Notes under the pieces: generated by a model
Databases searched by the model: none
Told to the model about the DNA's origin: nothing
Seen by the model: only the letters and a program-made list of their open reading frames with translations
Assembly (NCBI GenBank): GCA_963770895.1
Contig: CAVYRF010000001.1
Coordinates: forward strand, 704,481 to 768,480
DNA length: 64,000 nucleotides
Source: an uncultured Acidobacteriota bacterium
Lineage (GTDB): Bacteria > Acidobacteriota > Thermoanaerobaculia > Multivoradales > UBA5704
Reading direction: 5' to 3'
Translations under genes and position numbers: made by a program
Shown here: positions 1 to 36,849 of the stretch, piece after piece
How the letters are laid out: the number at the start of each line of letters is the position of its first letter
How positions within the stretch are numbered: position 1 is the stretch's first letter

Positions 1-1026
1 TTCCAGCCGGTCGGGCGAAACCGCGATCTCGTGGAAGCTGGGCAGCGCCTTGTCGCTGTCGGGGAAGCGGCCGGCGTGCGGACCGGTGATGATCGCCGTC
101 AGGTCGCTGTGCACGATCTCGTGGCCGTCGAGCATGGCCAGGATCGGCAGCCCGCTGTGTGCATGACCCTGGGGATACCGCTTGGTGTAGTCGATCTCGG
201 GGAGCTTCGCGGGATCGGGACGCGTGCAGACGCCGTTGTCCCACGTGCTGTCCTTGCTCGCCAGGCACAGGTCTTCGTGGTTCACCTGGCTGCGGTACCA
301 CTCGGCGCCGGCAGGCTCAACGATCAGCGCGCCGAACAGCCCCTGCTGCAGCTGACCGCCGTCGCCGTTGCCGCCGTCGGCCAGGCTGAACGTGTCGCCG
401 GTGCTGTACAGCAGGAATTCCCCTTCTTCCGGGGCATACAGCTGATACGTGATCGGCGGCAGGCCAGGCAGAACCAGGCTGCCGGTGCCCCCGGGCGGGG
501 TGCCCTGGCCGTTCAGGCCGACCCACGATCCGTCGTCGGCCGGCCGGTTGAACCAGTTGAGCCCCTGCACGTGCACGCCGGTGGCGCGGGTGGAGGGCTG
601 GCCGGCTTCGGGCGTCGGCGACACCAGGTTGCGGAACTCCACCTGCAGGCACTGCCCGCGGTTGACCCGCAGCACCATCGGCCGGGCGCGCTTGTACTTT
701 TTCAGCTGCACCTGGCCCGCCTGCCAGGTCGTCCAGTCCGCCGTGTTGGCGTTGGTCGACGTCTTGCTGGACGGTTCGACGTCGCCGGCCAGGGCATAGA
801 TCATTGCGTTGGGGAGGGATGCCCCCAGGCGGTTGGCGGTGATGGTCGCGTCGAGCGCCACCACCCGCGCCGTGACCGTCTCCGTGCACGGCGCGCCGCT
901 CTGCGCCATGGCGCCTGCCGGCACCATCCATGCGGCCAGCATCAAAAGGGCCGCGGGCGCCCACCGCGAAACACTGCAAGCAAAGGTGGGCCAAAGTGTA
1001 CGACGGAGCACTGCCGAGCTCTCCAT
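1..1026 (-). CDS. secreted cupredoxin / multicopper-oxidase-fold protein, partial (3' end runs off the window)
   Basis: Absent from the ORF track because there is no stop inside the window. Hand translation of the minus strand gives ATG at 1026-1024, preceded by GGGAGGAG (complement of 1029-1036). The N-terminus MESSAVLRRTLWPTFACSVSRWAPAALLMLAAWMVPAGAMA-QSG looks like a signal peptide, and the frame stays open to nt 1. VLRVNRGQCLQVEFRNL, ATGVHVQGL and GLFGALIVEP parallel MCO domain-1 motifs. Confidence 0.7.
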   Translation of the reverse strand, partial: MESSAVLRRTLWPTFACSVSRWAPAALLMLAAWMVPAGAMAQSGAPCTETVTARVVALDATITANRLGASLPNAMIYALAGDVEPSSKTSTNANTADWTTWQAGQVQLKKYKRARPMVLRVNRGQCLQVEFRNLVSPTPEAGQPSTRATGVHVQGLNWFNRPADDGSWVGLNGQGTPPGGTGSLVLPGLPPITYQLYAPEEGEFLLYSTGDTFSLADGGNGDGGQLQQGLFGALIVEPAGAEWYRSQVNHEDLCLASKDSTWDNGVCTRPDPAKLPEIDYTKRYPQGHAHSGLPILAMLDGHEIVHSDLTAIITGPHAGRFPDSDKALPSFHEIAVSPDRLE

Positions 1027-1267: not shown

Positions 1268-3724
1268 CTAGGTCAGCAGGCCGAGGCGCTTGATGGCGGC
1301 TTGCAGGGTGTCGATGGTGACGGGCTTGGTGAGGTGGATGGCGAAGCCGGCGGCGCGGCTGCGGCGGAGGTCTTCGTCGCGGCCGTAGCCGGAAAGGGCG
1401 ATGCCGCGCAGGGCGTAGCGGCCGGAGAGGCGGCGCATGAGGTCGTGGCCGTCGCCGTCGGGGAGACCCGGGTCGCTGATCACCAGGTCGATGCCGCCGC
1501 GGTCGGCCGCGCGCACGGCGTCCGCGATGGTGCCCGCGACGCTGACTTGCAGGCCCAGCAGCCGGAGGAGCTGATCGATGGCCTCGGCGGTGTCGGCGTG
1601 ATCTTCGACCAGCAGGATGTGGCCCTGCGGCGCGGCCGGCACGCTGACGGCGGGCGCCGCGCCGGACGTCGCCGTCGCCGGCATCGCCGTCGCCGGCGGC
1701 GCCGTGGCGGCCGCGACCGATGCGACCGATGCGTACGATGCCGACTGTGCGTCCGCGGCAGGCGCGCCGGCGTCCGCGTGCCCGGCGCCCGCCGCGGCGA
1801 AACCGGACGCGGCGTCGAGCAGCGGCAGCAGCACGGTGAAAGTGGCGCCGCCGTCCTGGCCGGGGCTGGCCGCGGTCAGGCTGCCGCCGTGGGCGGCGAC
1901 GATGGCGCGGCTGATGGCGAGCCCCAGGCCCAGGCCGCCGAAGCGCCGGGCGGTGCCGGACCGGCCCTGGTCGAAGGCGTCGAAGATGTGCGGCAGCGCC
2001 TGGGCCTCGATGCCGATGCCGGTGTCGGCGATCTCGATCGCCAGGTTGCGCGGCGGTGGCTGCTGCTGGTGCCGGTGCTCCGGCCGCTCGCGATCGGATG
2101 GGGCGGCGGCGCGGGGGGCGATATCGGAGCCGGGGGCGCCGGGAGCGCCGGCACCGGCGACGGCGGCGTCGGGGGCGGGCGCCGTGGCGACGAAGGTGCG
2201 GATGCGGATGGTGCCGCCGGCGGGAGTGAATTTGACCGCATTGCTCAACAGGTTCCAGAAGACCTGCGCCAGGCGTGCCGGGTCGCCCCAGACCAGGTGC
2301 TCTGCGGCGCCCAGGTCGCTGGTCAGGTTGCGCGCCGCAAGCTCCCGTTCGCCGCAGGTTTCGCAGGCCTGGCGGAGGACCGACCGCAGGTCGGTCGGCT
2401 GGCTGTGCAGCTCCAGCTTGCCGCGCGTGCTGCGGGTCAGGTCCAGCAGGTCGTCGATCAGCCGCGCCTCCAGGTCGATGTTGCGGCGGATGACGGCAAG
2501 GTCGGCCTGCAGCGGCGGCGGCAGCGCGGCGTCGGCCTCCAGCTTGGAGGCGATGGCCAGGACCGGAGTCAGCGGCGTGCGCAGCTCGTGGCTGAGGGTT
2601 GCCAGGAAGTGGTCCTTGGCGTGGTTGGCGGCTTCCAGGTCGCGGTACAGGCGCGCGTTGTCCAGGGCCACGGCGGTGCGCCGGGCCAGCTCGATGGCGA
2701 CCGTCAGGTCCTCGTGCTGGTGGCTGCGGAGGGAGTCGCCATAGACCAGGTGCCAGACCCCCAGGGTGCGGTCGCGTGCCACCAGCGGCAGGCTGACCAG
2801 CGAGCAGGGGGAGAGGGCGGCGACGATCGCCGTGCCGGGACCGGCCGCCAGCGCGGCGGGGATCGCCGCCGCCGATCCGTTGGCGAGCAGCACCGGCTCG
2901 CCCGTGCGCATGACGGCTGCCGCGACCGACCCGTCGTGCCACGCGGGCGGCGTGGACTGCAGCTCGGTGAGCTGGCGCTGGCGCTCGCTGTCGGGCGACT
3001 TGCTGACGACGCGCTGGCCGTTGGAGCCGCGGTCCTTCAACAGGTCGATGACGCACCAATCGGCGAGCCTGGGCACCGCCAGCCGGGCGCCGGTTTCCAG
3101 CGCTTCGCCGGGCCCCAGCCAGGCGGACAGCAGCTCGCCGGCGTCGGCGAGCAGGCGCAGGCCGTCTTCGGCGCGCTTGCGCTCGGTGACGTCTTCGACG
3201 AAAGCGACAAACCCCAGGACTTCGCTGCCATGGACGTGCGGCACGAAGCTGGCGCGCAGGCAGCGCTCACCCAGGTCATTGCCCAGGGGGGCCCAGCGCT
3301 CGCACGAAATCTGGCGCCCGGCGAGCGTCGCGTCGATCGCCTCCTTGAGCACGCCGAAGGCGCCCTCGCCCAGCACCTCCGCCATGGTCCGTCCCGAGAT
3401 CTGGTGCACCGGCATGCCGAACCAGGCCTCGTAACGGCGGCTGTTGAAGCGGTAGCACAGGTCGCGGTCGACGTAGGCGACCAGCGCGGGCAGCGAATCG
3501 GTCACCAGGTGGAGCTGGCGGATGAGGTCGGCGGTATCGAGCGTGTACACCTGCTCGCCGCCGGGCGCAAGCATCACGAACGCATCCACCTCGCCGCGGC
3601 GGATGGCGCTCACCGTCTCTTCGGGCTCGGCCAGGCGCGCCCGCAGCTCGGCAATTTCTACCAGCAGCTCCTGGCGGGATTTGGCGGCGTCGATGGCGTC
3701 GGTGGCGGCGTTGGCGTCGGTCAT
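1268..3724 (-). CDS. hybrid sensor histidine kinase (PAS-GAF-HisKA-HATPase-receiver)
   Basis: 818-aa ORF. It has an H-box (SHELRTPLTPV), a G2 box (GGLGLGLAISRAIVAAHGGSL) and a C-terminal receiver (ILLVEDHADT...DLVISDPGLPDGDG...LTKP). It starts 42 nt downstream of kaiB on the same strand. Confidence 0.9.
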   Translation of the reverse strand: MTDANAATDAIDAAKSRQELLVEIAELRARLAEPEETVSAIRRGEVDAFVMLAPGGEQVYTLDTADLIRQLHLVTDSLPALVAYVDRDLCYRFNSRRYEAWFGMPVHQISGRTMAEVLGEGAFGVLKEAIDATLAGRQISCERWAPLGNDLGERCLRASFVPHVHGSEVLGFVAFVEDVTERKRAEDGLRLLADAGELLSAWLGPGEALETGARLAVPRLADWCVIDLLKDRGSNGQRVVSKSPDSERQRQLTELQSTPPAWHDGSVAAAVMRTGEPVLLANGSAAAIPAALAAGPGTAIVAALSPCSLVSLPLVARDRTLGVWHLVYGDSLRSHQHEDLTVAIELARRTAVALDNARLYRDLEAANHAKDHFLATLSHELRTPLTPVLAIASKLEADAALPPPLQADLAVIRRNIDLEARLIDDLLDLTRSTRGKLELHSQPTDLRSVLRQACETCGERELAARNLTSDLGAAEHLVWGDPARLAQVFWNLLSNAVKFTPAGGTIRIRTFVATAPAPDAAVAGAGAPGAPGSDIAPRAAAPSDRERPEHRHQQQPPPRNLAIEIADTGIGIEAQALPHIFDAFDQGRSGTARRFGGLGLGLAISRAIVAAHGGSLTAASPGQDGGATFTVLLPLLDAASGFAAAGAGHADAGAPAADAQSASYASVASVAAATAPPATAMPATATSGAAPAVSVPAAPQGHILLVEDHADTAEAIDQLLRLLGLQVSVAGTIADAVRAADRGGIDLVISDPGLPDGDGHDLMRRLSGRYALRGIALSGYGRDEDLRRSRAAGFAIHLTKPVTIDTLQAAIKRLGLLT

Positions 3725-3766
3725 AGGTCCAGCGTTGGTATCTCGGGCGGGTCGCTGGACCGCGCA

Positions 3767-4108
3767 TCATCTCCGCGGCAGCACATCCAATCCCACCAGC
3801 ACCCGTTCCGTCTGTGACAGGTCGCCGATGATCTTGCGCATCGGCGCCGGCAGCTTCCTTACCAGGGTCGGGATCGCCAGGATCTGGTCCGCCCGCGCCA
3901 GGTGCGGGTTGGCCATGAGGTCGATCACCTCGACCCGATATCTCCCTGCAAGATGCTCGCCGCAGATCTTTTTGAGGTTGCTGAGCGCCGCCATTGAGCG
4001 CGGGGTCTGGCCGGCGACGTAGAGCCGCAGGTCCCAGGTTCCCTCCTCCTGCTCGGGCGGGAGCGATGGAGGCGATGGAGACGAGGTGGTCTGGTCGTGG
4101 TTGCTCAT
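3767..4108 (-). CDS. kaiB: circadian clock protein KaiB (thioredoxin-like fold)
   Basis: 113 aa starting at internal ATG 4108 of ORF 3767..4930. The sequence [72 protein letters not shown] is classic KaiB. Its ATG overlaps the kaiC stop (ATGA at 4105-4108). Confidence 0.9.
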
Positions 4109-5892
4109 AGCCGTTCCTTCCGAGCCGGCGAGCGGCCGCCGGCCCCCTCTGTCTGGCGCTTTTGCGCCATGTCCTGCCGCAGGCGGGCGTCGTCTTCGCG
4201 GCGGCGTTGCTCGCCGGCGAGCAGCGCCTCCAGGCGCTCCTCCTCGACTTTGAATTCGTGGCGCAGCAGGGCGATGCGGTTTTCCACGTCCTCGCGCTTG
4301 AGCTCCACTTCGCGCCGCCGCCGCTGCACCTCCAGCTGCCAGTCCGCCATCTCTTTGTCCTGTCGCGCCTGCTCCGCGGTGCGCGCCGAGCCGACCAGGA
4401 TGCCGGCAGGACCTACAAAAACCTCCGACAGCCGGATGCCGTGGTCGGTCAGCAGCAGCTCGCGCGTCTGCCGCGAGTGACCCATGCCGCGCGACTTGAA
4501 CAGCGACAGGGTGCGGTTGCGCTCGCCGCCCGCTTCGACGTCGCTCAACACCAGCCAGCTGTCGATCAGCGACGAGACGCCGACCACGGATTCCTGTTCG
4601 TTGCGGTGTGGCGTCGTCAGGCTGGTGTACAGGGCGGTGACGCGGCGCTCCTTCAGGAAGTCCAGCAGCCGCACCAGCAGCGACCGCACGTCGTTGGCGG
4701 AGCTGGTGGACAGGAAGGTGCCGATCGAATCGATCACGACCATCTGGGCGTCGGTGTCGCGCACCGCGCGGTGGATCACCGCCAGATGGCTTTCCAGGCC
4801 GTGCAGCGTCGGCCGCGCCGCGTGGAAGCGCAGCAGCCCCTCGCGCAGTGGGGTTTCCATGTCGAGGCCGATCGATGCCATGTTGCGCACCACCTGGTCG
4901 TGCGACTCCTCGAAGGAGAAATAGAGGCACTTTTCGCCGCGCTTGCAGGCTGCGGCGACGAAGGACGACGCCAGGCTGCTCTTACCGCTGCCGGCAACGC
5001 CGGAGATCAGGACGCTGCTGCCGCGGTAGAAGCCGCCGCCCAGCATGGCGTCCAGGTCCGGCACGCCGCTCGAGATCCGCTCGCGCGACACCTTGTAGTC
5101 GAGGCCGGCGGCGGTGATCGGCAGCACCTCCAGGCCTTCGCTGTCGATCAGGAAGGGGTATTCGTTGGTGCCGTGGGCCGAGCCGCGGTACTTGACGATG
5201 CGCAGGCGGCGCGTCGCGATCTGGTCCACCACCCGATTGTCCAGCAGGATGACGCAGTCCGACACGTACTCTTCGATGCCGAAGCGGGTGAGCGCGCCGT
5301 CGCCGCGTTCGGCGGTGATGATCGCCGTCACGCCGCGGTCCTTGAGCCAGCGGAAGAGTCGCCGCAGCTCGGCGCGCAGGATGGCCTGGTTGGTGAGACC
5401 GCCGAAGAGCGCTTCCAAGGTGTCCAGGACAACCCGTCTGGCGCCGATCGCGTCGATGGCGAAACCCAACCGGATGAACAGCCCCTCCAGGTCGTAGTCG
5501 CCGCTCTCCTGGATCTCGCCGGGTTCGATGTGCACGGTGTCGACGGTCAGCAGGTGCTGCTTCGCCAGGGCGTCCAGGTCGAAGCCCAGCGAGCGGACGT
5601 TGGCGCTCAGCTCGTCGGCGTTCTCCTCGAAGGCCAGGAAGACGCCGGGTTCGCCGCACCGCGTCGCGCCGTGCACCAGGAAGTGCATCGCCAGGAGCGT
5701 CTTGCCGCACCCGGCGCTGCCGCACACCAGGCTGGGCCGGCCGGCCGGCAGGCCGCCGCCGGTGATCTCGTCGAGACCGGCGATGCCGGTGGCGGCCTTG
5801 GGCAGCGCGCCGGCGGCGGTCTGCACGCGGCTGTGGCTGACGGTGGTCGGCGGCGGTGCGGGCCGCTGGTCGCTGTCCGTCGTCTTGCTCAT
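4105..5892 (-). CDS. kaiC: KaiC-family double-RecA ATPase/autokinase with C-terminal coiled-coil extension
   Basis: 595 aa from ATG 5892, which is in frame with ORF 4105..6531. There are two Walker A motifs (GSAGCGKT and GVAGSGKS) and the line [16 protein letters not shown]. The last ~90 aa (about 4108-4380) are Glu/Arg-rich and heptad-like. Confidence 0.92.
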
Positions 5893-5909
5893 GGCGTTGG
5901 TCTGGCGCC

Positions 5910-7796
5910 TTACCCTGACGATAGCGACCCTCGCTGTATCCGGCCGCCGCCTGCCCGTGCCTGCCGCGGGTGGGAAGCGGTCGGAGTATACACCTCCGGC
6001 ATGGTGGCGCCGGGTGACGACAGCATCCCCCTGGCCGCCGCCAGGGCTGCCGCCAGGGGGATGCGGGCGGGGCGGTTGCGGGCGGCGTCGAAGAGGGCCT
6101 GGCTGAGCGGTCCCGCGGGCTGGGAGTGGACCAGCTTTTCGTGGTGGGCAAAGTAGAGGGTGGGCGTGGCGGCGGCTTCGGCCAGGTGGATCGGGGCGCT
6201 GTCGTTGGAGACCAGCAGGCGCGCGCCGGCGACCAGGGCCGCCAGGGCGCCGAAGGAATCCCGGCGGATGACGATGCGGCCGCGGTCGGCGGCGCCGGCC
6301 TGCCCGCGGCGCAGGTGTTGCTCCACCGCGGCGAGCACCGCGGCGTCGCCGGCGCCGCCTTCGATCAGCACGTGCAGGCCGTCGGCCGCCAGGCCCAGCG
6401 CCAGGGCGGCGAACTTGCGCGCCGGCCAGCGGGTCGACGAGCGCGCGCCGGGGGTGAGCACCGCGAAGGGGGCGTCGCCGATCCCGGCGGCGGCGAGCGC
6501 CGCGGCGGCTTCGTCGCGCCAGGCGGCGCACAGCGGCAGCTCGATGCGGCGGTCGACCGAGCCCGCCGGCGCGGCACCGGGCAGCGGATCGAGCGCGTGC
6601 AGCAGCAGGCGCGGGCTGGGCAGGGTGTTCCAGAAAAACCAGGCCTCGTGGGTGAACAGCGGCGACGCCTCGCGGCCGTCGTCCGCCGCGTCGAAGTATT
6701 CCAGGTTGACCCGCCAGGGAATGCCAAGCTGGGCCGCGGTTTCAGCCAGCCACCGTGCCGCCGGGCGCCGCACAAACGCGAACAGTGCGGCGTCGAAGCG
6801 GCGCGCCGCCAGCTGCTGCACCAAAAGCTGCCGGGGGGAGAGCCCGGCCGCGCCGTGCGGATTGACCAGAGGGTCCAGCGGGTCGAGCGGATCCAGCTGT
6901 GCCAGCGGGCTCGCCGCCTCCGGAGGATGCAACGGGTTCACCCGGTCCGGCGGGTTCGCTGGGGTCGGGCTCACGGGCTTCAGCGCGTTCGGAGTGTTCG
7001 GTGTCTTTGGCGATTCCCGTGGGTCCGGCGGCAGGATCAGCAGCTCACCCAGCCGCGGATTGGTTGCCAGCGCCGGCACCGCGCCCGGGGCGGCCAGCAC
7101 GGTGATCCGGACACCGGGCAGCCGGCTGTGCAGCGCGCGCAGCAGCGGCGTCAGCCACAGCGCGTCCCCCAGATGGGAGCGCGCCTGGAAGACCAGCACG
7201 CTGCGGACCGGGGCGGCGGGGCCGGGCGCCGCGGTCAGCCAGTGCGGCGAGTCCGCCGCCAGCGCGGCGGCGAACGCGTCGCCCGCCGCCCGCGCCGCCG
7301 CCCCGTCGGGCAGCCGCCATTGGAAGGCGCGCGGCACCGGCGCCAGCCACCAGCCGGGCCGCCCGGCAATGCGCTCTGCGATGGCGGCGTCGTCGCCCAG
7401 CAGCACGCCGGCGGCGCCCGGCCGGGCGAGGCCGCCGGGGCTCCAGGGCGGTGCCCCTCCGTCGGGCGCCGCGGCGCCGCCGGGGATCCGCGCGACCGCC
7501 GCCGCCGGGAGCAGCGCAAAGGGGGCGTCGGTGGCCAGGGCCGAGCGCAGCCAGACCCGCGTGCGCACCGCGGGCCGCGCCGCCCCCAGCCCCTCGAGCA
7601 GGCCGTACAGGCCGGCGAATTCCAGCCGGTGATGCACCGGCTGCCCGCACACCAGCTCCAGGTCGAAGCCCGCGGCGACCCCCTCCTGTGCCGCGACGGC
7701 GTCCAGGGCGCGCAGCAGGCCGGCGACGGTCGCGGGCAGCACCGGCAGGGGCAAGGTTCCCGCCGGGCGGCGAAGCTGTGGCTGGGGATCGGTCAT
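5910..7796 (-). CDS. glycosyltransferase family 9 (heptosyltransferase-like) with N-terminal unknown domain
   Basis: 628 aa from ATG 7796 inside the long ORF 5910..9320. The C-terminal VSNDSAPIHLAEAAATPTLYF and FQARSHLGDALWLTPLL are GT9 signatures. A Pro-rich insertion lies at about 6880-7020. Confidence 0.75.
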   Translation of the reverse strand: MTDPQPQLRRPAGTLPLPVLPATVAGLLRALDAVAAQEGVAAGFDLELVCGQPVHHRLEFAGLYGLLEGLGAARPAVRTRVWLRSALATDAPFALLPAAAVARIPGGAAAPDGGAPPWSPGGLARPGAAGVLLGDDAAIAERIAGRPGWWLAPVPRAFQWRLPDGAAARAAGDAFAAALAADSPHWLTAAPGPAAPVRSVLVFQARSHLGDALWLTPLLRALHSRLPGVRITVLAAPGAVPALATNPRLGELLILPPDPRESPKTPNTPNALKPVSPTPANPPDRVNPLHPPEAASPLAQLDPLDPLDPLVNPHGAAGLSPRQLLVQQLAARRFDAALFAFVRRPAARWLAETAAQLGIPWRVNLEYFDAADDGREASPLFTHEAWFFWNTLPSPRLLLHALDPLPGAAPAGSVDRRIELPLCAAWRDEAAAALAAAGIGDAPFAVLTPGARSSTRWPARKFAALALGLAADGLHVLIEGGAGDAAVLAAVEQHLRRGQAGAADRGRIVIRRDSFGALAALVAGARLLVSNDSAPIHLAEAAATPTLYFAHHEKLVHSQPAGPLSQALFDAARNRPARIPLAAALAAARGMLSSPGATMPEVYTPTASHPRQARAGGGRIQRGSLSSG

Positions 7797-8572: not shown

Positions 8573-8669
8573 TGAGCGCGCGGCGCGCAGTGGGCGATAC
8601 GCCAGGCCGGCGCGGGCAGTGGGCGATGACGGGCCGGATGCCGCGCCAACCGGGAAGGAGGCAGTGCCG

Positions 8670-9482
8670 ATGGAAGACACCGTAGCGGCGGCGGGCGCCA
8701 CCGACGCCGAGCGCTATTTCTTCGAGGCCAACGGCTACCTGGTGATCCACGACGCCCTGGGGCCGCGCGACCTGGCGCGGGTGTGCGCCGCGGGCGAAGC
8801 CGCCGCCGCGCGCTGGCGGGCCGATCCGGCGCTGCCGGGGCCGCGCCGCGCCGACCTGGAAAGCATCCTGGCGATCGTCGAATACGACCCGGTGTTCCTG
8901 GAGGTGCTGGAAAACCCGCGCGTCCTGCCGGTGGTGCGCGACCTGCTGGGCCCGGATCTCATGCTGGTCGACAACGACTACTTTCTCACCCCGCCCGGCG
9001 CCACGATCCGCCGCGGCTGGCACTACGACGAATCCTTCCCCGGCGTGTATCACCCGCGCTCGCGGCTGCTGGTCAAGGTGTTCTACGTGCTGCAGGACAT
9101 CCCGCCCGGCGGCGGCGCCACGCTGGTGCTGCCCGGCTCGCACTGCTTTGCCGCCGACCTGCGCCTGCCCAACTCCGAGGTGCCCGAAGACCTGCCGGGA
9201 AGCGTGCCGCTCCACCTGCCGGCGGGGGCCGCCTATCTGATGTCCGGGCGCACCTATCACTCGGCCGGCACCAACCGCTCGGCGCTCTACCGCAAGCTGC
9301 TGATCTATACCTATGGGCACAAATGGATGCGCGTCTGGGACAGCTACGAACCCTCGGCGGCGCTGGCGGCGCGCGCCGAGCGGCCGATCACCCGCCAGCT
9401 GCTGGGGCTGACCGATCCCTATGGCGCCAACGCGCCCCTGGCGGCAAGCGACGGCCAGGCGGCCGCCCAGGTGGAAGCGTGA
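8670..9482 (+). CDS. phytanoyl-CoA dioxygenase (PhyH) family Fe(II)/2-oxoglutarate oxygenase, copy 1
   Basis: ATG 8670 lies after GGAAGGAGG (8653-8661). Signature lines are ERYFFEANGYLVIHDAL, WHYDE (HxD) and GATLVLPGSH. Confidence 0.8.
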   Translation: MEDTVAAAGATDAERYFFEANGYLVIHDALGPRDLARVCAAGEAAAARWRADPALPGPRRADLESILAIVEYDPVFLEVLENPRVLPVVRDLLGPDLMLVDNDYFLTPPGATIRRGWHYDESFPGVYHPRSRLLVKVFYVLQDIPPGGGATLVLPGSHCFAADLRLPNSEVPEDLPGSVPLHLPAGAAYLMSGRTYHSAGTNRSALYRKLLIYTYGHKWMRVWDSYEPSAALAARAERPITRQLLGLTDPYGANAPLAASDGQAAAQVEA

Positions 9483-10261
9483 GCGCGGCCACCCTGTGCG
9501 ACGACGAGCGCCTCTTCTTCGAGGCCAACGGCTACCTCATGCTGGAAGGCGCCCTGACCGCCGCCGAAGTCGCCCGCCTGCGCCAGGTCACCGACGAAGC
9601 CGAGCAGCGTTTTCACCGCAACCCCGATCTGCCGGGCTCGCGCCTGCCGGAATTCCTTGAGCTCGAAGCCATCATGGAGTATCACCAGCAGCTCTTCGAT
9701 CTCGTCGAGCACCCCCACGTCTTCCCGCGCGTGCGCCAGGTGCTGGGCCCCGACATCGCCGTGATCGATCACGCCTACTACGTCACCCCGCCGGGCGGCG
9801 TCGTCACCGGCAGCGCCTGGCACACCGACCTGGGCAAGCGCATTCACGGCGTCTACAACCCGCGCTCGATCCTGATGGTGCGGGTGATGTACACCCTGGA
9901 CGACGTCGGTCCGAACGACGGCGCCACCCTGGTGCTGCCGGGCTCGCACCGCTTCACCCCCGACGTCGCGGTGCCGCGCGTCGAAGTGCCCGAGCAGATG
10001 CCCGGCAGCGTGCGCCTGACATGCCCGGCCGGCAGCGCCTACCTGTTCAACGGCAACATCCTGCACTGCCCCGGCAACAACCGCGGCACCCGCAACCGCC
10101 GCATGCTGCTCTACAACTACGGCCACCGCTGGATGCGCATGTGGAAAGGCCACGACCCGTCGCCATGGCTGGCCCAGCGCGCCACCACCCCCATGCGCCG
10201 CCAGCTCCTCGGCCTCGGCCGCCACTACTACGGCGCCGACGCCCCCTGCGAACCCGCCTGA
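9479..10261 (+). CDS. PhyH family Fe(II)/2-oxoglutarate oxygenase, copy 2 (tandem paralogue)
   Basis: GTG 9479 overlaps the stop of copy 1 (GTGA). ERLFFEANGYLMLEGAL, WHTDL and GATLVLPGSH are clearly paralogous to the upstream gene. Confidence 0.8.
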   Translation: MSAATLCDDERLFFEANGYLMLEGALTAAEVARLRQVTDEAEQRFHRNPDLPGSRLPEFLELEAIMEYHQQLFDLVEHPHVFPRVRQVLGPDIAVIDHAYYVTPPGGVVTGSAWHTDLGKRIHGVYNPRSILMVRVMYTLDDVGPNDGATLVLPGSHRFTPDVAVPRVEVPEQMPGSVRLTCPAGSAYLFNGNILHCPGNNRGTRNRRMLLYNYGHRWMRMWKGHDPSPWLAQRATTPMRRQLLGLGRHYYGADAPCEPA

Positions 10262-22103: not shown

Positions 22104-25100
22104 GTGTCTGACAGCGAGCACCCTTTCGCCGCGCGCGGAGCTGGCGCGGCTCCGCAGGACCTCGCGCCGGCCGGCGATCTGGACGGCGGGGACGGCCGTG
22201 ACGCGATGCTGCGGGCGGCCGGGCCGGAAGAGCGGGCCGCCCTGGCGCTGGCCTGGCTGCGGCGCCAGGCGGCGGCCACCCTCGACCGGGACGCCGCGCA
22301 GCTCCCCGCGGACCGTTCGCTGGTGGCCCTGGGATTGGACTCGCTGGCGGCGGCCGAGCTCTCGGGCGCCGTCGAAAACATCCTGAAAGTGCCGCTCGGT
22401 GTAGCCGACCTCCTGGCCGGCGCCAGCCTCGCGGAGCTGGCCGGCGACATCGCCCGCAATCTCGATGAGGCTGCGGCGGCGTCGCACGCCGGCCAAGCCG
22501 GCGGTACGGTCCACGCCGGGGACGACGGCCGCCAGGTGGTCGTGCCGGAGCCCCACCGCGCCGGCGCGCCGCCCCCCGCCGCGCCGTCGCCCCGCACCGC
22601 CCTGTCGTGGGGCCAGCGCGCCCTGTGGCTGGTGGACCGCATGGCGCCGGGCAACCCGGCCTACATCCTGGCCGGCGCCGCGCACGTCGGGGTTGGCGCC
22701 GCGCGCGGCGGCGACCTCGACGTGGCGCGGTTGTGTCAGGCCATTACCGCCCTGGTCGCTCGCCATGCGGCCTTGCGCATGCGGTGCGAGCAGGGGAGCG
22801 ATGGAGAGGTGGTGCAGGTGGTGGGCGACCAGCCGCTGTTCGGCTGGCTTGAGGTGGATGCCGGCGTCCTGAGCGAGCAAGGGTTGCACGAGCTGGTGGC
22901 AGAGGAGGCTTGGCGGCCGTTCGACCTCGCCCGCGGGCCGCTGCTGCGAGTGGCTCTGTTCCGCGGTGGCGGCCGGGCGCCGCTGCTGGTGCTCGCGGTG
23001 CATCACATCGTCGCCGACTTCTGGTCGCTCGGCGTGATGATCGACCAGCTGGGTGCGCTCTACCAGGGGCGCCTCCTGGCGCCGCTCGCGGCGACGCATG
23101 GCGAGCACGCGCGGCGCCAGGCGGAGCGGTTGGCGGGACCCGAGGGGGAGGCCCTGGCGGCCTGGTGGCGCGCCGCGCTGCCGCCGGGGGCGCCGGCGCT
23201 CGAGCTGCCGACCGACCGGCCGCGGCCGCCGGTGCAGGGATTCCGCGGTGGCGCGCGGACGCGCTGGTGGGAGCGGGAGCTGGTAGGGGAGCTCGACCGG
23301 CTGGGCCGGCGGGCCGGGGCCACGCCGTTCATGACCCTGCTGGCCGCCTACATGACGCTGCTGCACCGCTACACCGGCCAGCCGGAGCTGCGGGTGGGGA
23401 CGCCAGCGTCCGGCCGTGGCGCGCCGGACCTCTCGGGCCTGGTGGGCTACTTCGTCAATCCGCTGGTGGTGCGCGGCGAGCTGGCCGGCAACCCCGGCTT
23501 CGAGCAGCTGCTGAGCCGGGTGCGGCAGGCCGTGCTCGCGGTGTTTGCCCACCAGGACTTCCCGTTTGCGCTGCTCGCCGAGCTGCTGGGCGGCGCCCGC
23601 GATCCCAGCCGGCCGCCGGTGTTCCAGGCGATGTTCGTGTTCTACAGCGAGCGGCGCGCCGGCGAGCGCGGGATGAGCGGTTTCGCGCTGGGCGAGGCGG
23701 GCGCGCGGCTCGATCTTGGCGGCCTCACGCTCGAATCGGTGCGGCTGCCGCGGCGCGGCGCGCAGGTCGATCTGACGTTGCTGGCGGCCGATCGCGACGA
23801 TCGCGACCAGCGCGCCGAGCGCGAGGGTGCGCGGGCGGTCTCGTTGCAGTTCGACAGCGTGCTCTTCGACGGCGCCACGGCGGAGCGGATGCTGGGTCAC
23901 CTGTGCGCGCTGGCCGCCGCCGCGGTCGCCGATCCGGGGTGCGGCATCCGCGACCTGCCGCTGCTCACCGCCGGCGAGCGCCAGCAGGTGGCGGAGTGGA
24001 ACGCCACCGCCGTCGCCTGGCCTGGCGACCTGCGCCTGCACCAGCTTTTCGAAGAGCAGGCGCGCCGCACCCCGGACGCGGTGGCCGTGGTGGTCGACGC
24101 CGCTACCGACGCCGACGCCGACGCCGACGCTGATACCGGCGCCGACACCGCCGGCGCCGGGTCCCGTCGCGGCCCCGCACCGCCGGCGGCCGGCCGCGCG
24201 GTGGCTTCCGCCGCGTGCTGGACCTACCGCGGCCTCGACCGGCGCGCCGACCGGCTGGCGCGAAGGCTGCGGCAGGCCGGCGTCGGGCCGGAATCCGTGG
24301 TGGCGATCCTGGCCGAGCGCTCGGCCGCCATGGTCGCCGGCCTGCTCGCCATCCTCAAGGCGGGCGGCGCCTACCTGCCGCTCGATCCCGACCACCCCGC
24401 CGAGCGCCTGCGCCAGATGCTGCACGACTCAGGCGCCGGCGTGCTCCTGGCACAGCGCCGGCTGCTGCCGCGGCTGGGCGAGCCGGACGCGCCGCCTGTC
24501 GTCGCGGCCGCGGTGCTGGTGCTCGACGATCCCGACCGGGACGATTCCGCCCAGGACGAGCAGGACGATCCCGCCACCGGCGGTGCCGCGTTCGGCGCTG
24601 CCGCTCTTGCGCTGGCGCCCGACGGCCGGCCGGAGCGTGCGCCGCCGCCGCTGGAGCGCGCCGTCCACCCGGATAGCCTGGCGTACGTGATCTATACCTC
24701 GGGCTCGACCGGCCGGCCCAAAGGCACCATGAACACGCACCGGGGCATCGTCAACCGGCTGCTCTGGATGCAGCAGCAGTACCGATTGGCGGCCGACGAC
24801 CGGGTGTTGCAGAAGACGCCGCTGTCCTTCGACGTGTCGGTCTGGGAGCTGTTCTGGCCGCTCGCGACGGGGGCGTGCCTGGTGATGGCCCGTCCGGGCG
24901 GGCACCGCGACAGCGGCTACCTGCTGGCGGCGCTGGCGGCGCACCAGATCACCACCGTGCATTTCGTGCCGGCGATGCTGAGCGATCTTCTCGCGGCCCT
25001 GCCGCCGCGGGGCGATGCAAGCTCGGGCGCCGGCCCGTGGGACGCCGCGCCGGCAGGGCTGCGCCGGGTCGTGGCAAGCGGCGAGGCGCTGCCCTACGGT

Positions 25101-28100
25101 CTCCAGCAGCGCTATTACGCGGCGCTCGCGGCGCCGCTGCACAACCTCTACGGCCCTACCGAAGCCGCGGTCGACGTCACCCATTGGGCGACCGACCCGG
25201 ACGCCGATCGGCGGCTGGTGCCGATCGGGCGGCCGGTGGCCAACACCTGGATCCGGCTGGTCGACCGCCAGGGCGGGCTGGTGCCGATCGGTGTACCGGG
25301 CGAGCTGTGCATCGGCGGCGTGCAGCTGGCGCGCGGCTACCTGGGCCGCCCGGCGCTGACCGCCGAAAGGTTCGTGCCCGATCCGCTGGGCGACGCGGCA
25401 GGAGCGCGCCTCTACCGCACCGGCGACCTGGCGCGCTACCTGCCGGACGGTGCCATCGACTACCTGGGCCGCCTGGACCACCAGGTGAAGATCCGCGGCG
25501 TGCGCATCGAGCTCGGCGAGATCGAAGCTGCCCTGCTGCGCCATCCGGCCGTGCGCGAAGCGGTCGTCACCGTGGCCGCCGTGGCGGACCACGCCTCGCC
25601 GGCCGGCGCCGACCCGCGGCTGGCGGCCTACCTGGTGACGCGCGGGGCGGCCGCGCCGCCGCGGGCGGGAGAGCCGGCGGCTGGGGAGCCGGCCGCGCCG
25701 CCTGCTGCGCCGGCCGCCGCGCCGCCGTCCGACCTGGCCGACGACCTCCGCCGCCTGCTGCGTCAGAGCCTGCCGGAGGCGATGATCCCGGCGGCCTTCG
25801 TGGTGCTGCCCGCGCTGCCGCTGTCGGCCAACGGCAAGGTGGACCGCCGGGCGCTGCCGGCGCCGCGGTGGGGCGCCGCCGCGGTCGCGGGCACGCCGCC
25901 GCGCACTGCCGACCAGGAGATCCTGGCCGGCCTGTTCGCGGAGCTGCTGGGGCTCACGGTCGCTGGCGACCGCAGCGGCGACAGCAGCGGCAACGGCGGC
26001 AGCAGAGCTAGCGGCGACAGCAGCGACGACGGCGAAAGCAGCGGCAACGGCGGAAGCAGCGGCAACGGCGGAAGCAGAGGCAGCGTCGACAGCGGAGGCA
26101 GCGGCGCCGCGGCCGGCGGGTGGGTGGCTGGAACACAGGGGGGCGAAGCCGCGGACGCGCGCGGCGTCGCGGCGGCGAGCGGTGGGGAGCAAGGCGGCGG
26201 CCTTGGCATCGACCAGAGTTTTTTCGATCTCGGCGGCCATTCGCTGCTGGCGACCCGCCTGCTGGCGCGGGTGCGCCAGGTGTTCGCGGTGGAGCTGCCG
26301 CTGCGGCAGGTGTTCGAGGCGCCGACGGTGGCCAGGCTCGCCGCGGCGATCGCGGCGGCGCGGCGGGGCGACCTGGCGGCGGCGCCGCCGCTCGTGCCGC
26401 TGCCGCCCGCGGCTCGCCAGGGGCCGCTGGCGCTCAGCTTCGCGCAGGAGCGCATGTGGTTTCTCGACCAGCTGGAGGGCGGCGGTGCCACCTACAACAT
26501 GCCCGGCGTGCTGCGCCTCGCGGGCCCGCTGCAGGTGGCGGCGCTGCGCGCCGGGCTGGCGGAGGTGTGCCGCCGCCACGAGGTGCTGCGCACGACGTTC
26601 ACCGTGCGCGATGGCGCCGCGGGGCCGGTCGCCCGCGTCGCCCGGCCGGCCGCCGCTCCGGGGCCGCCGCTGCCGCTGGTGGATCTGTCCGGGCTGGCGG
26701 CCGGCTGCCGACAGGCGGTCGCCTCGCGGCTCGCCGCCCTGGAGGCGCGGCGCCCGTTCGACCTCGTCGCGGGCCCCGTGCTGCGCGCCGTGCTGCTGCG
26801 CCTGAGCGGCGGGCCGCCCGCGGCGGCGCAGGCGCTCCACCTGCTGCTGCTCACGCTGCACCACATCGCCGCCGATGCCGAGTCGGTCGAGGTGCTGGCG
26901 CGCGAGCTGGCCGCCCTCTATACCGCGGGTGCGACCGGCAGGCCGCCAGACGCGGCGGCGCTGCCGCCGCTCCCCGTCCAGTATGCCGACTTCGCCGCCT
27001 GGCAGCGGGCGGCGCTCAGCGGCGACCGGCGCGCGGCCGAGGTGGCTTTCTGGCGCGAGCAGCTTGCCGGCGCGCGCGGCGCACCGCCGGTGCTCGAGCT
27101 GCCCTGCGATCGGCCGCGCGGCACGGTGAGCGGCCGGCGCGGGGCGCGGCGCCCCGTGGTGCTGCCCGCCGCGCTGGCCGGCAGGCTCGCGGCGGTGGCG
27201 CGGGACCACCGCGCCACCCTGTTCATCGCCTTGCTGGCGGCCTTCGACACCCTGCTGGGCCGTTACGGCGGCCAGGACGACGTCGCGGTGGGCGTGCCGG
27301 TCGCCAATCGCGACCGCGCCCAGATCCAGCCGCTGATCGGGCTGTTCGTCAACACGCTGGTGCTGCGCCTCGACCTGTCGGGCGACCCCACCTTTGGCGA
27401 GCTCCTGGGGCGCGCGCGGCAGACGGCGCTGGCCGCCTACGGCCACCAGGAGATGCCGTTCGAGCAGCTGGTCGCCCACCTGCAGCCGCGGCGCGCAGCG
27501 GGCGAAAGCCCGTTCTTCCAGGTGGTCCTGGCGCTCCAGCCCGGCCTGGCGGCGCCGGCGATGGCGGGCCTGGCGGTCGAGCTCGCCCCCGGCGACACCG
27601 GCACCGCCAAGTTCGACCTGTCTTTGGCGCTCGACGTCGCGCCCGACGGCAGCCTTGCCGGCACCTGGACCTGGCGCGCCGGCCTGTTCGACCCGGCGAC
27701 GATCGAGCGGCTTTCGGTGCAGCTGCGGCAGCTGCTCGCGGCGGTCGCCGCGGGCGAACCGGGACCGGCGGGCCGCCTCTCCGAGCTGCCGCTGCTCGGC
27801 CCGGCCGAGCGCCACCAGCTGCAGCGGGAATGGAACGACGTCTGGCAGCCGGGCGGCGGCGACCTGCTGCATGCGGCGTTCGAGCGGCGGGCGGCGCAGG
27901 TGCCCGACGCGGTGGCGGCGGTGGAGGCCGGCCACGACGGCCTGATGGGGCGCAGCCTCACCTACGGCGAGCTGGCGGCGCGCGCCGGCCGGCTGGCGTG
28001 CCGGCTGGCGGCGCTGGGAGTCGCGCCGGAGCGGATCGTCGGCGTCTCGCTCCCGCCGTCGCTCGACCTGCTGGTGGCGCTGCTCGGCATCCTCAAGGCG

Positions 28101-31100
28101 GGCGGCGCCTACCTGGCGCTCGATCCGGCGCAGCCGCGGGAGCGCCGGGCGCAGATCCTGGCCGAGTCGTCGGCACTCCTGGTCGTCGCCGCGAGTCCTG
28201 CGGCGCCCACCGCTCCGGTTACCGCCGCCACCGCCGCCGCCTCCTCCTCCGTCATCGCGGCCACCACCGCCGCCGCCGCCGCGCGCCCGTCCGCGGTCGA
28301 GGGCCTGATGCTGCTCGGCCCGGACGGGCGCGCGGCGGCGCTGGGCGCCGCGGCCGGCGCCACCCCCCGGCGCACCCCGTTCCCCCCGGCCCCGGATCCG
28401 GACCCCGACAACGCCGCCTACGTCCTCTACACCTCCGGCTCCGGCGGCGCGCCCAAGGGCGTCGTGGTCAGCCATCGCGCCGTCGTCAACCGTCTGCGCT
28501 ACCAGGTTGCCGCCGACCTCGCGCCCGACTCGCGGGTGCTGCAACGGGCGCGCCTCGCCTTCGACGTCTCGGTGCTGGAGCTGTTCGCGCCGCTCTGGGC
28601 GGGCGCCGCGGTGGTGCTGATCGATGCCGCCCGCCAGCAGGACGCCGGCTACCTGGCCCGCGTCGTGGCCGCGCAGCAGGTCACCAACTTCAACGCGCCG
28701 CCGGCGTTGCTCCCGGCCCTGCTGGCCGAAGACGAGCTCCGCCGCTGCCGCGCGCTGCGCCGCGTGGTGCTGGGCGGCGAGCGGGTGCCGGTCGACCTCG
28801 CTCACCGATTCGCGACGATGATGGCGGCTGGGCCTGGGGCGGCGCCGTTGCTGCTGTCGCGCTACGGTCCGACCGAGGCCACCATCTCGGTGACCGAATG
28901 GCACTGCCGCCCCGCGCCGGCCGCGCCTGCCGGTTCGGCCGGACCGCTCGGCTGGCCGATCGCCGGCGCTCGCCTCCACCTGCTGGACCGCCATGGCCGC
29001 GAGGTGCCGCCCTCGGCTCCGGGCGAGCTCTGCATCGGCGGCATCTGCCTGGCGCGCGCCTATCTCGCCCGGCCCGACCTGACCGCCGCGGCGTTCATCC
29101 CGGACCCCTTCGCGGCGCCGGGCGAAGAGGCGGGCAGCCGCCTCTACCGCACCGGCGACCTGGCGCGCCGGCGCGCCGGCGGCGAGCTGGAATTCCTCGG
29201 CCGCATCGACCGCCAGGTCAAGATCCGCGGCTTCCGCGTCGAGCTGGGCGACGTCGAGGCGGCGCTCGCCCGCCACCCCGGTGTGCGCGAAACGGCGGTG
29301 GTGGACCGCGACGAGCCGGCGACCGGCGGCAGGCGCCTGGTGGCCTACGTGGTGCCCCGCCAGGCGGATGCCGGCGGGCTCGAGCCGCAGGCGCTACGGT
29401 CTTTCGTCGCGGAGCACCTGCCGCCCTACATGCTGCCCGCCGCCTGGGTCCTGCTGGACTGCCTGCCGCTCACCGCCAACGGCAAGCTGGACCGGCGGGC
29501 GCTGCCCGAGCCGGCCGACCTGTCGCCGGCGGCGGACGCGGCGGAGCCGGCTGCGCTGGACGGGGCGAGCGGCCGCCGCGGCGCCGCCCCCCGCACCCCG
29601 GCCGAAGAGCTGCTGGCGGGGATCTGGTGCCAGCTCCTGGGCGTCCGGCAGGTATCCATCGGGGACGACTTTTTTCACCTGGGCGGCCATTCGCTGCTCG
29701 CCACCCAGCTGGTGTCCCGGCTGAGCGCGACGCTGGCGGTCGACCTTCCCCTGGCCAAGGTTTTCGAGCACCCCACCCTGGCGGCGATGGCGTCGGCGAT
29801 CGAGCAGGCGCGCGGCCTGGGCGGCGCGGAGCCCACCGTCGCCGGGCTCGCCGGCCGTCTGACGCCGGCGCACGAAGCCGGCGGCGGCGCCGGCCGGGGC
29901 GACGGCGCGCGGCCGGTGCCGCTACCGCTCCTGCCGCGGCAGGCGGGCGGCGCCGCGGCGCAGCTGCCGCTGTCGTTTGCCCAGCAGCGGCTCTGGTTCC
30001 TGGACCGCCTGGCGCCCGGCTCGCCGGCCTACAACATGCCGCTGGCGGTGCGGCTCTCCGGCGACCTGGACATCCCCGCCCTGGCTGCCGGCGTCGCCGC
30101 CCTGGTGGCGCGGCACGAGACCCTGCGCACCACCTTCCACGAGACCGCGGGCGAGCCCTGGCAGCGGATCGCGCCGCCGCTCGCCGCCGGTGCCAGCTCC
30201 GGCGCCGGCGCCGGCGCGGCCGCCACAAGCGCGCTGCCGGTCGTCGACCTGCGGGCGCTGGTGGACGCCGGTGAACCGGACGGCGAGCCGGGCGGTGGGC
30301 CGGGGCTGGATGCCGGCTGGCCAGGTCAGCCGGATGGTTTCGCGCCGCTGCCGCTGCCGCGGCGCGCGCTCGCCGCGGCGCTCGACCTGGCCGCGGCCGC
30401 GGCGCGGCGGCCCTTCGACCTGGCGCGCGGCCCGCTCTTCCGGCCCCTCCTGCTGCGGTTGACCGGGCGCGAGCACCTCTGGCTGGGGACCATGCACCAC
30501 ATCGTCTCCGACGGCTGGTCGCTGGGCGTCCTGGTGCGCGAGCTGACCGCCGTCTACGCCGCGCTGGCGGCCGGCCGGGAGCCCCGTCTGCCGGCCCTGC
30601 CGGTGCAGTACGCCGACTACGCCGCCTGGCAGCGCCAGCGCCTGTCCGGCGACCTCTTGGCGGCGCAGATCGCCCACTGGCGCGAGCGCCTGGCGGGCCT
30701 GCCGGCGCGGCTCGACCTGCCGGTGGACCGGCCGCGCCCGGCCGTCGAAACCGTCGCCGGCGCCCAGCGGCGCTGGCGCCTGGCCGGCGACGTGGCCGGC
30801 CGGCTGCGCCAGCTGGCGGCAGCGTCGGGGGCGACCCCGTTCATGGTCCTGGTCGCCGCCTTCCAGGCGCTCCTGGGGCGCTGGTCCGGTCAACAGGACC
30901 TGGCGGTTGGCACGCCGATCGCCGGCCGCAACCGCATCGAGATCGAAGGCCTGATCGGCTTCTTCGTCAACACCCTGGTGCTGCGCGCCGATCTCTCCAG
31001 CGGGCCGCGGCGCCTGGCGTTCGACCAGCTGCTGGCCCGCACCCGCGAGGCGACCCTGGCCGCGTACGCCCATCAGGAGCTGCCGTTCGAACGGCTGGTC

Positions 31101-34779: not shown

Positions 34780-35196
34780 TCAGCCGGCGCGGAGCAGCAG
34801 GACGGGGACGTTGACGCTGTGCTGGACGCGGTTGGCGGTGACGCCCAGGAAGAGGTCGGCCAGGAAGCGGTGGCCGTGGGTGCTCATGGCGACCAGGTCG
34901 CAGCCGCGTTCGCGGACCCAGCGGACGATTTCGGTGGCGGGGTCGCCGTAGGCCAGCTCGGCCTGGGCGGGGATGCCCAGGGCCTCGAATTCGACGCGGA
35001 CGGCTTCCAGGTAGGCGGTGTCGTCGCGGATCTCGGGGCTCACGGCGTCGGGGCCGAAGGTGCGGGCGGCCCAGCCGGTGGCGACGTGCAACAGGACGAT
35101 GCGGGCCTGGGTGAGCTGGGCCAGGGGCTTGACGTGCTCGATGATGGCGCGATCGCTCCTGGTGGTGTCGAGGGTGACGAGAATGCACTGATACAT
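34780..35196 (-). CDS. universal stress protein (UspA family)
   Basis: 138 aa from ATG 35196 after GGAGG (complement of 35201-35205). Signature lines are MYQCILVTLD, DLVAMSTHGHRFLADLFLGVTANRVQHSVNVPVLLL. Confidence 0.85.
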   Translation of the reverse strand: MYQCILVTLDTTRSDRAIIEHVKPLAQLTQARIVLLHVATGWAARTFGPDAVSPEIRDDTAYLEAVRVEFEALGIPAQAELAYGDPATEIVRWVRERGCDLVAMSTHGHRFLADLFLGVTANRVQHSVNVPVLLLRAG

Positions 35197-35216
35197 CGCC
35201 CCTCCTGCGCAGCCGT

Positions 35217-35382
35217 TAGTGGCCTGTCCTGGAGAATTCGAAAGCGGATGGCGCCGGCAATCGGCGGCGGGGGCCAGGCGCGCCGACGCAGGCATAGTCG
35301 GAACTATGTCGAGGAGGCGCAACGCCGCACCCGCCGTCGAGGGCAAGCCAGGCGCTTTCGAATTCTCCAGGACAGGCCACTA
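35217..35382. repeat. perfect 30-bp inverted repeat flanking a 106-nt core (MITE-like element or long-stem RNA)
   Basis: 35217-35246 (TAGTGGCCTGTCCTGGAGAATTCGAAAGCG) is the exact reverse complement of 35353-35382. The element lies in the 206-nt gap between the mntH stop and the usp start. The outermost TA could be a TA target duplication. Confidence 0.8.
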
Positions 35383-35402
35383 GTGTGCCGCCGCCATGGG
35401 AA

Positions 35403-36812: not shown

Positions 36813-36819
36813 TCAAAGT

Positions 36820-36849
36820 ATTGAATCACAGGTACCCGAATTGTGTCAA
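36820..36849 (-). promoter_or_regulatory. putative mntH promoter with an embedded imperfect dyad (possible metalloregulator operator)
   Basis: On the minus strand: TTGACA (complement of 36844-36849), an 18-nt spacer, then TTCAAT (complement of 36820-36825). The spacer contains CACAATTCGGGTACCTGTG, with CACA/TGTG arms around GGTACC. Pattern match only. Confidence 0.3.

Follow-up and report, generated by a model that had tools for sequence, protein, structure and literature searches.

The question raised by this locus was whether a bacterium outside the cyanobacteria carries a KaiC-based timer that runs without KaiA, and through which protein such a timer would be read. The locus lies in a 64,000-nucleotide (nt) stretch of contig CAVYRF010000001.1; this whole stretch is called the window, and all coordinates below are window positions. 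It holds kaiC, kaiB and the gene of a hybrid sensor histidine kinase, which an initial annotation, made by reading the sequence alone, had proposed to be a KaiA-independent timer wired to the kinase. We concluded, at a probability that we put near 85%, that the locus is a KaiA-independent, KaiC2/KaiB2-type operon of kaiC, kaiB and a PAS/GAF hybrid kinase, which by homology would work as an hourglass. Mechanical lists of open reading frames were full of spurious frames because the G+C content of the region is 69–72%; the three co-oriented genes were picked out by a codon-position composition score together with family searches.

5892..4105, minus strand: kaiC, 595 amino acids (aa), KaiC2-type with a predicted C-terminal coiled-coil extension (NF006799, match to structure 8DBA, BLASTP against Rhodobacter sphaeroides KaiC)
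4108..3767, minus strand: kaiB, 113 aa (PF07689 at 5.9e-26; start overlaps the kaiC stop)
3724..1268, minus strand: hybrid sensor histidine kinase gene, 818 aa (domain matches and catalytic boxes)

The gene coordinates agreed with the spacing described initially, and the E-values of all the assignments were well outside the range of chance matches. Gene kaiB adjoins kaiC in the same orientation, and its ATG (4108–4106) and the kaiC TGA (4107–4105) overlap as ATGA; kaiB is translationally coupled to kaiC. The kinase ATG at 3724 stands exactly 42 nt past the kaiB stop. Both the ATGA overlap and the 42-nt gap were kept in two relatives, the loci L082 and L081. The window contained no second kaiB or kaiC and no second related kinase.

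The KaiC protein matched PF06745 with two domains (371 bits). On the family NF006799, "circadian clock protein KaiC", it scored 707.8 bits where 408 are required, and it fell under the cut-off of the cyanobacterial equivalog TIGR02655 (338 vs 546 bits). Its best match in the PDB was the dodecameric KaiC of R. sphaeroides, 8DBA (E 4.5e-191, 639 bits). KaiC residues 29–567 aligned to residues 4–542 of 8DBA with just two one-residue gaps, which lay in the CII domain, and with no gap in the coil; matches to cyanobacterial KaiC (Se/Te, Se being Synechococcus elongatus) were about half as strong, at 321–338 bits. BLASTP against the KaiC of R. sphaeroides KD131 gave 55% identity over 549 aa, tail included, and the top Foldseek matches of the AlphaFold2 model were 8FWI, 8FWJ and 8DBA. 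The bit scores and the two family cut-offs thus placed this KaiC nearer to the R. sphaeroides type than to cyanobacterial KaiC1. The closest named relatives, at 67–68% identity, belong to metagenome-assembled genomes (MAGs) of Thermoanaerobaculia, and there are at least 8,000 homologues, the best-scoring of which are 560–630 aa long. An identical KaiC is on record in NCBI/ENA, encoded on a 2.24-Mb contig. A canonical cyanobacterial KaiABC oscillator, which would be built on KaiC1, was rejected on the TIGR02655 score, on the Ser-Ser dyad described next and on the absence of KaiA from the window.

The domains and predicted phosphorylation sites of KaiC were located as follows.

5116..5793, minus strand: KaiC CI domain, residues 34–259 (PF06745; Walker A GSAGCGKT at 58–65, catalytic E89/E90)
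4393..5085, minus strand: KaiC CII domain, about residues 270–500 (Walker A GVAGSGKS at 298–305, catalytic E328/E329)
4570..4575, minus strand: predicted autophosphorylation sites S440/S441 (alignment to R. sphaeroides S413/S414 and S. elongatus S431/T432)

Both Walker A motifs that had been reported were recovered, and residues K64/T65, E89/E90, D157, K304, E328/E329 and D388 were all present and invariant in a family alignment of 62 sequences. The motif GVSSLIDSW places the Ser-Ser dyad at S440/S441, each of them invariant in the same 62 homologues. HMMER aligned the pair with S431/T432 of Synechococcus KaiC. In R. sphaeroides KaiC the pair corresponds to S413/S414, each replaced by Glu in the S413E/S414E phosphomimetic structure 8FWI. 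Phosphorylation of these aligned sites is known from experiment. A dyad of Ser-Ser instead of Ser-Thr, seen by eye at the outset, was therefore found again by profile alignment. A loss of autokinase residues on proper alignment had been named as a finding that would speak against the timer; the catalytic Glu pairs, the Walker lysines and the dyad were all kept.

Past the CII domain the protein continues into a tail, which had been described as about 90 aa of Glu/Arg-rich, heptad-like sequence at 4108–4380.

4147..4392, minus strand: C-terminal helix, KaiC residues 501–582 (AlphaFold2, heptad test, alignment to the R. sphaeroides coil)
4108..4146, minus strand: last 13 KaiC residues (583–595), basic, predicted disordered (model confidence, pLDDT, below 50 for 579–595)

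The length was right: the ten-residue segment after which the tail had been said to begin is residues 494–503, and 92 residues lie beyond it. Counted past the end of the shared alignment, the tail is about 67 aa longer than that of S. elongatus KaiC and equal in length to the R. sphaeroides tail. AlphaFold2, run on the KaiC monomer with the 62-sequence alignment, predicted a single helix over residues 501–582, with a pLDDT of 84–93 (means of 10-residue blocks) over 501–570; confidence was low at residues 1–27 and 579–595. In the family, the extreme C-terminus is poorly conserved in sequence but rich in Lys and Arg. The published truncation point of the R. sphaeroides delta-coil variant, E490, corresponds to D517 here, and the part past D517 is a predicted coiled coil, with the coil proper at about 518–582.

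Bulky hydrophobic residues at 515, 522, 529, 536, 543 and 557 and at 540, 547, 554 and 575 made up an a/d pattern, which was canonical from about 536 to 558 and sparser N-terminal of that. Over residues 505–582, 11 of the 16 Leu/Ile/Val/Met/Phe residues fell on one a/d register (p = 0.0013 in a shuffle test that allowed the best of seven registers). Residues V522, V529, V536, I540, L543, F547, L554 and L557 matched L, I, A, I, L, L, L and L, respectively, of the R. sphaeroides coil. The tail is also very rich in Arg and Glu. A disordered tail with no heptad register, the other outcome that had been expected to count against the timer, was rejected on the confident helix and the significant register. 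Tail length was conserved as well, at about 100 aa in all 79 homologues whose kaiC reached a stop codon, across many phyla (89–145 aa in 78 of the 79, a single outlier of 214 aa, median 104).

Within this conserved length, the window KaiC and those of L082, L081 and P0002–P0005 have a coil variant in common (4147–4341, residues 518–582); in the window protein the consensus Ala residues at 535, 538, 542 and 549 are D, N, L and V, and R518 is W. A KaiC without the tail was also seen. The protein of locus L085 (83–1561), 492 aa long and with 59% identity to that of the window, retains the Ser-Ser dyad and stops before the coil; two kaiB genes (1567–2370) and a PAS protein follow it.

The KaiB protein likewise found its best PDB match in R. 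sphaeroides, namely KaiB in 8FWJ chain M (7.3e-31, aligned over residues 27–108). It bears an N-terminal extension of about 24 aa that is Ser/Pro-rich and non-conserved. No KaiA family was among the Pfam matches of the 41 window gene calls (cut-off E ≤ 0.001, or 0.01 for the three operon proteins), and a six-frame tblastn of the window with Synechococcus KaiA, a query checked against 5N8Y chain M, gave a best E of 0.34. The statement that the window has no kaiA-like gene was borne out by both searches.

We then compared the operon across genomes, using 80 loci among the matches listed, with KaiC identities of 53–64%, from many phyla including Acidobacteriota, Bacteroidota, Planctomycetota, Nitrospirota and even Methanoperedens. 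Gene kaiB was directly downstream of kaiC in 75 of the 80, and of the 68 loci that extended far enough, 66 had a same-strand gene right after kaiB. Among these 66 downstream genes, a count that leaves out the window kinase, PAS was present in 62 and HATPase_c in 53; dimerization domains were HisKA (31), HisKA_3 (20) and HWE (2), and REC and GAF occurred in 21 and 8. With the window kinase added to the tally, PAS and HATPase_c stood at 62 and 54 of 67. The same hybrid kinase as in the window was kept in L082 (KaiC 94% identical) and L081 (74%). These counts, a PAS protein in third position in 62 of 66 loci and usually a kinase, agree with the initial remark that PAS histidine kinases are common partners, and with published work: a "kaiC-B-PAS/HK operon" (HK, histidine kinase) has been named in Rhodopseudomonas palustris and R. 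sphaeroides, with a longer KaiC C-terminus and Ser-Ser sites (PMC4794148), and a large kaiC2 clade with an extension of about 50 aa has been described (Pitsawong et al. 2023, PMC10076222). In 38 of the 75 loci two tandem kaiB genes stood between kaiC and the PAS gene (for example L018 7785–8327 and L085 1567–2370); the window and its close relatives have a single kaiB.

The kinase of the window has the domain order PAS_4, GAF, HisKA, HATPase_c, REC, preceded by a short N-terminal module.

3527..3673, minus strand: kinase N-terminal module, residues 18–66, with an amphipathic helix, AIRRGEVDAFV and G..VYTL (profile and alignment to the R. sphaeroides kinase)
3173..3499, minus strand: kinase PAS_4, residues 76–184 (PF08448 at 2.9e-13)
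2660..3067, minus strand: kinase GAF, residues 220–355 (PF13185 at 1.4e-07)
1820..2620, minus strand: kinase HisKA (369–434) and HATPase_c (about 477–635) (Pfam and motif inspection)
1289..1618, minus strand: kinase receiver (REC), residues 703–812 (PF00072 at 2.2e-16)

Judged from its motifs, the kinase looks catalytically competent: the H-box His379, NLLSNAVKF (N box) at 491, DTGIGI (G1 box) at 567 and GLGLGL (G2 box) at 597 were found, as were the acidic-pocket residues E707/D708, the phospho-acceptor Asp751 and the conserved Lys800 of the receiver. The HATPase_c domain (window 1820–2296) carries a Pro/Ala-rich low-complexity insert of about 48 aa (residues about 511–558) between the N and G1 boxes, and the L082 kinase showed the same split HATPase_c match; an Ala-rich low-complexity linker of about 65 aa (about 1619–1815) lies ahead of the receiver.

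The N-terminal parts of this kinase and of the R. sphaeroides HWE kinase were the only parts that the two had in common (31% identity over 165 aa, E 1e-8), and their opening sequences are EIAELRARLAEPEETVSAIRRGEVDAFVM and EIDELRRRLHEAEETLKAIRQGDVDALVV. A profile of the module (residues 18–66) gave 76 strong matches in about 1 Mb of loci. All but one of them (75/76) were directly after kaiB, starting at a median of 71 nt past its stop, in 74 of 84 loci, and the kinase cores behind the module differed (HisKA, HisKA_3 and HWE). Because the profile was built from the same loci, its detection of them is circular, and the informative part of the result is the lack of matches in other flanking PAS kinases. 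A word-indexed homologue search with kinase residues 1–190 returned 4 proteins only and was uninformative; the exhaustive phmmer search used instead, with 60 aa, returned 2,105 cluster representatives in which the motif was almost always at the extreme N-terminus. Six of the module's contexts were sampled and four were informative, with kaiB immediately upstream in three of the four and not in the other.

We infer with moderate confidence that the N-terminal module couples the kinase to KaiC/KaiB. Tentatively, and at somewhat less than even odds, the helix, AIRxGEVDAxV and PAS together (about residues 18–190) may form a dedicated KaiB/KaiC docking adaptor carried by unrelated kinases and by kinase-less proteins in many phyla. 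The adaptor idea is partly anticipated by work in Pseudomonas putida, where the N-terminal PAS of a KaiC-adjacent kinase suffices for KaiC binding in vitro (bioRxiv 10.1101/2022.01.26.477890); a helix-PAS module common to KaiB-adjacent kinases with unrelated catalytic cores is the mildly new point. If true, the module would be a non-cyanobacterial counterpart of the docking domains of SasA and CikA, and a sequence marker for KaiBC output proteins genome-wide.

The system to which the locus was closest is the hourglass of R. sphaeroides KD131 (8DBA, 8DB3, 8FWI, 8FWJ; Pitsawong et al. 2023, PMC10076222). In each system, KaiC consists of two domains with a Ser-Ser phosphosite and continues into an extension of about 78 aa, a coil in R. 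sphaeroides and a predicted one here, equal in length and alignable without gaps; both have the gene order kaiC-kaiB-kinase, kinases with an N-terminal helix-PAS module and no adjacent kaiA. Identity to the locus is 55% for KaiC and 68% for KaiB. The R. sphaeroides kinase, however, is a 478-aa HWE kinase, whereas the one here is an 818-aa hybrid with GAF, HisKA and receiver domains. Unlike in R. sphaeroides, kaiB here has the 24-aa N-terminal extension and the ATGA overlap with kaiC, and several coil positions differ, with fewer Ala. The host here is also probably a non-phototrophic acidobacterium, and the locus is on a contig of at least 2.24 Mb and not on a plasmid, whereas the R. sphaeroides genes are on plasmid pRSKD131A.

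By its published description, the kaiC-kaiB-PAS/HK locus of R. palustris (Ma et al. 2016, PMC4794148) consists of the same three genes, with no KaiA, and encodes a KaiC that has Ser-Ser and a longer C-terminus; its role has been shown experimentally in fitness under 24-h cycles and in the timing of nitrogen fixation (PMC4794148). The KaiABC system of S. elongatus has the same KaiC fold, catalytic motifs and phosphosite position (S440/S441 here vs S431/T432), a KaiB homologous at E ~1e-25, and output through a histidine kinase, as predicted here. It differs in its KaiC, which is only about 36% identical to the one here and about 67 aa shorter C-terminally, in its KaiA, of which the window has none, and in its gene order, kaiB-kaiC vs kaiC-kaiB here. 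Kinase docking differs too, presumably going through the helix-PAS module here, whereas in SasA a KaiB-like domain, and in CikA a pseudo-receiver, does the docking. The Pseudomonas KaiC-like system, likened by description, has a KaiC that adjoins a PAS kinase, as here, but is without KaiB, and its reported role is in stress resistance and biofilm formation (bioRxiv 10.1101/2022.01.26.477890). The KaiC2 subgroup typically has the extended C-terminus and Ser-Ser, as here, whereas the KaiC3 of Synechocystis is without the extension and uses a chimeric KaiA3, no gene for which is in the window (PMC11372060). The Synechocystis KaiC2B2 pair is thought to be clock-independent (PMC11372060).

On the R. 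sphaeroides model, a 12-helix bundle would link two KaiC hexamers at their tails, giving a homododecamer. The A loops would be held exposed, allowing autophosphorylation without KaiA at high ATP, and phosphorylation of KaiC would shift the register of the coil. KaiB would bind the CI ring in its post-hydrolysis state, speed up the ATPase and favour KaiC dephosphorylation once the ATP/ADP ratio falls. Such a system would be driven from outside, as an hourglass or energy-state switch, and would not sustain oscillations by itself. The hybrid kinase would read the phosphorylation of KaiC or its KaiB-bound state through the conserved helix-PAS module, and would pass phosphate via its own receiver to partners encoded outside the window. 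It is thus homology to R. sphaeroides that predicts the dodecamer, the hourglass kinetics and the coupling to the kinase; the biochemical mechanism is likely conserved.

The proposal of a KaiA-independent timer wired to a hybrid kinase was therefore supported in every element open to test: the R. sphaeroides-type KaiC, the dyad, the helical tail, the retained catalytic residues, the coupling of kaiB to kaiC, the lack of a kaiA in the window and the PAS kinase. It was refined in two respects. First, in R. sphaeroides the coil is not what permits autophosphorylation without KaiA; the exposed A loop does, and coil-less (delta-coil) KaiC phosphorylates at a similar rate, while the coil stabilizes the assembly and gates dephosphorylation by its register shift (PMC10076222). 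Second, a day/night role is less certain than the biochemical mechanism because the host is probably a Thermoanaerobaculia acidobacterium and not a purple phototroph.

Nothing measured contradicted the reading of the locus as a KaiBC-kinase timer, and a few observations weigh against it. The nearest named relatives of two window genes are Thermoanaerobaculia MAGs. Photosynthesis genes were not found in the window, and a cue from ATP/ADP tied to daylight is therefore not evident. The class Thermoanaerobaculia is not known to be phototrophic. The window gene calls included no cognate response regulator or Hpt gene that might receive the signal. Neither the window tail nor the family profile gave a significant Fourier signal of hydrophobicity at periods 3.5 and 7 (p = 0.07–0.25). 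The two-register switch could also be altered: the interface of the unphosphorylated R. sphaeroides coil is built from Ala and Arg C-beta atoms (PMC10076222), and because small residues form that interface and several Ala are replaced here, the balance of the two coil registers might, as speculation, differ in this lineage.

The alternative that survived best keeps the same biochemistry and drops timekeeping, so that the module would be an energy-state or stress switch that reports ATP/ADP, and not day length, to a phosphorelay. We think this possible, though with the odds running clearly the other way. It draws on the probable Thermoanaerobaculia host, on the spread of the family over many non-phototrophic phyla and even Methanoperedens, on the ATP/ADP-driven nature of the R. 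sphaeroides system itself, and on the improved stress resistance given by Pseudomonas KaiC-like proteins (bioRxiv 10.1101/2022.01.26.477890). Against this, day/night timing is the role of the close homologues in R. sphaeroides (PMC10076222) and R. palustris (PMC4794148), and soil and sediment bacteria also meet daily cycles. The sequence does not tell the two roles apart.

Two further alternatives would each take one component out of the proposed timer, and both are very improbable. The first holds that the tail is a charged low-complexity appendage without pairing and that KaiC works as a single hexamer. The abundance of Arg and Glu, the Fourier results, the tail-less close relatives such as L085 and the continued phosphorylation of the R. 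sphaeroides delta-coil mutant would all suit it. They are outweighed by a confidently predicted helix of about 80 residues, the a/d enrichment, a conserved hydrophobic stripe in gap-free alignment with a coil seen by crystallography and cryo-EM, and a length conserved in all 79 complete homologues. The second takes the kinase for an unrelated neighbour and not the KaiBC output, PAS kinases being abundant in such genomes. We rejected a fortuitous neighbour on the 42-nt same-strand gap, on the conservation of the operon (a same-strand gene after kaiB in 66/68 loci, PAS in 62/66), and on a module that is almost exclusively right after kaiB (75 of 76 matches in about 1 Mb) and is also present in R. 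sphaeroides; the three genes have moreover been published as one operon (PMC4794148).

Weakest, and scarcely credible, was the idea that a kaiA or chimeric kaiA3 elsewhere in the genome drives this KaiC as a self-sustained oscillator: the 64 kb examined are part of a contig of at least 2.24 Mb and KaiA3 homologues exist in some non-cyanobacteria (PMC11372060), but the window gave no KaiA signal, the partner of KaiA3 is the tail-less KaiC3 and the kaiA3 gene lies upstream of kaiB3 (PMC11372060), and the KaiC here scored 338 vs the 546 bits needed for TIGR02655 and is of the coil-bearing KaiC2 type, a homologue of which autophosphorylates without KaiA (PMC10076222).

Published work already covers the protein family, its tail and phosphosites and the three-gene operon, and the locus, which adds one more KaiA-independent KaiBC hourglass, does not alone change understanding. 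What the comparison brings out is that coil-bearing KaiC2, KaiB and a helix-PAS kinase occur as a set in Acidobacteriota, Planctomycetota, Bacteroidota, Nitrospirota, Proteobacteria and others. Most such phyla are non-phototrophic, which raises the question of which cue and which output the system has outside photosynthetic bacteria. The module found on otherwise unrelated kinases is a concrete candidate for the KaiBC readout in non-cyanobacteria.

The genes on either side of the operon were also inspected. Upstream, a family-9 glycosyltransferase gene (5893–7754) is on the kaiC strand and stops 17 nt before the kaiC ATG, a gap that therefore leaves no space for an intergenic promoter. This linkage was common only to L082, a 93%-identical metagenome contig, and was absent from L081, where an ArsR-type regulator gene (HTH_5) on the opposite strand is found upstream of kaiC instead of the glycosyltransferase. 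The promoter scan returned no sigma-70-like promoter, terminator-like sites did not exceed their frequency in shuffles, and no Rfam family matched anywhere in the window. The gene downstream of the kinase (1–945, minus strand) had no Pfam match and was 91% identical to the start of an L082 protein of more than 1,973 aa.

Farther away, 8664–10261 contains two PhyH-family (phytanoyl-CoA dioxygenase-like) paralogues in tandem, the stop codon of one overlapping the start codon of the other. At 22206–34448 lies the gene of a non-ribosomal peptide synthetase of 4,080 aa, which has four condensation and four carrier domains, three adenylation domains and, at its end, a thioesterase. Genes for a universal stress protein, an Nramp/MntH manganese transporter and a DtxR/MntR-type metalloregulator with a FeoA domain stand together at 34780–38271; the closest named homologues of the MntH protein, at 83%, were from Thermoanaerobaculia MAGs and are the clearest pointer to the host. 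Lastly, a methyltransferase gene is grouped with radical SAM genes, four of them B12-binding and one with a SPASM domain (39251–40816 and 46896–53367). This group, which may be a modification or biosynthetic cluster, adjoins glycosyltransferase, nucleotidyltransferase and polysaccharide-export genes.

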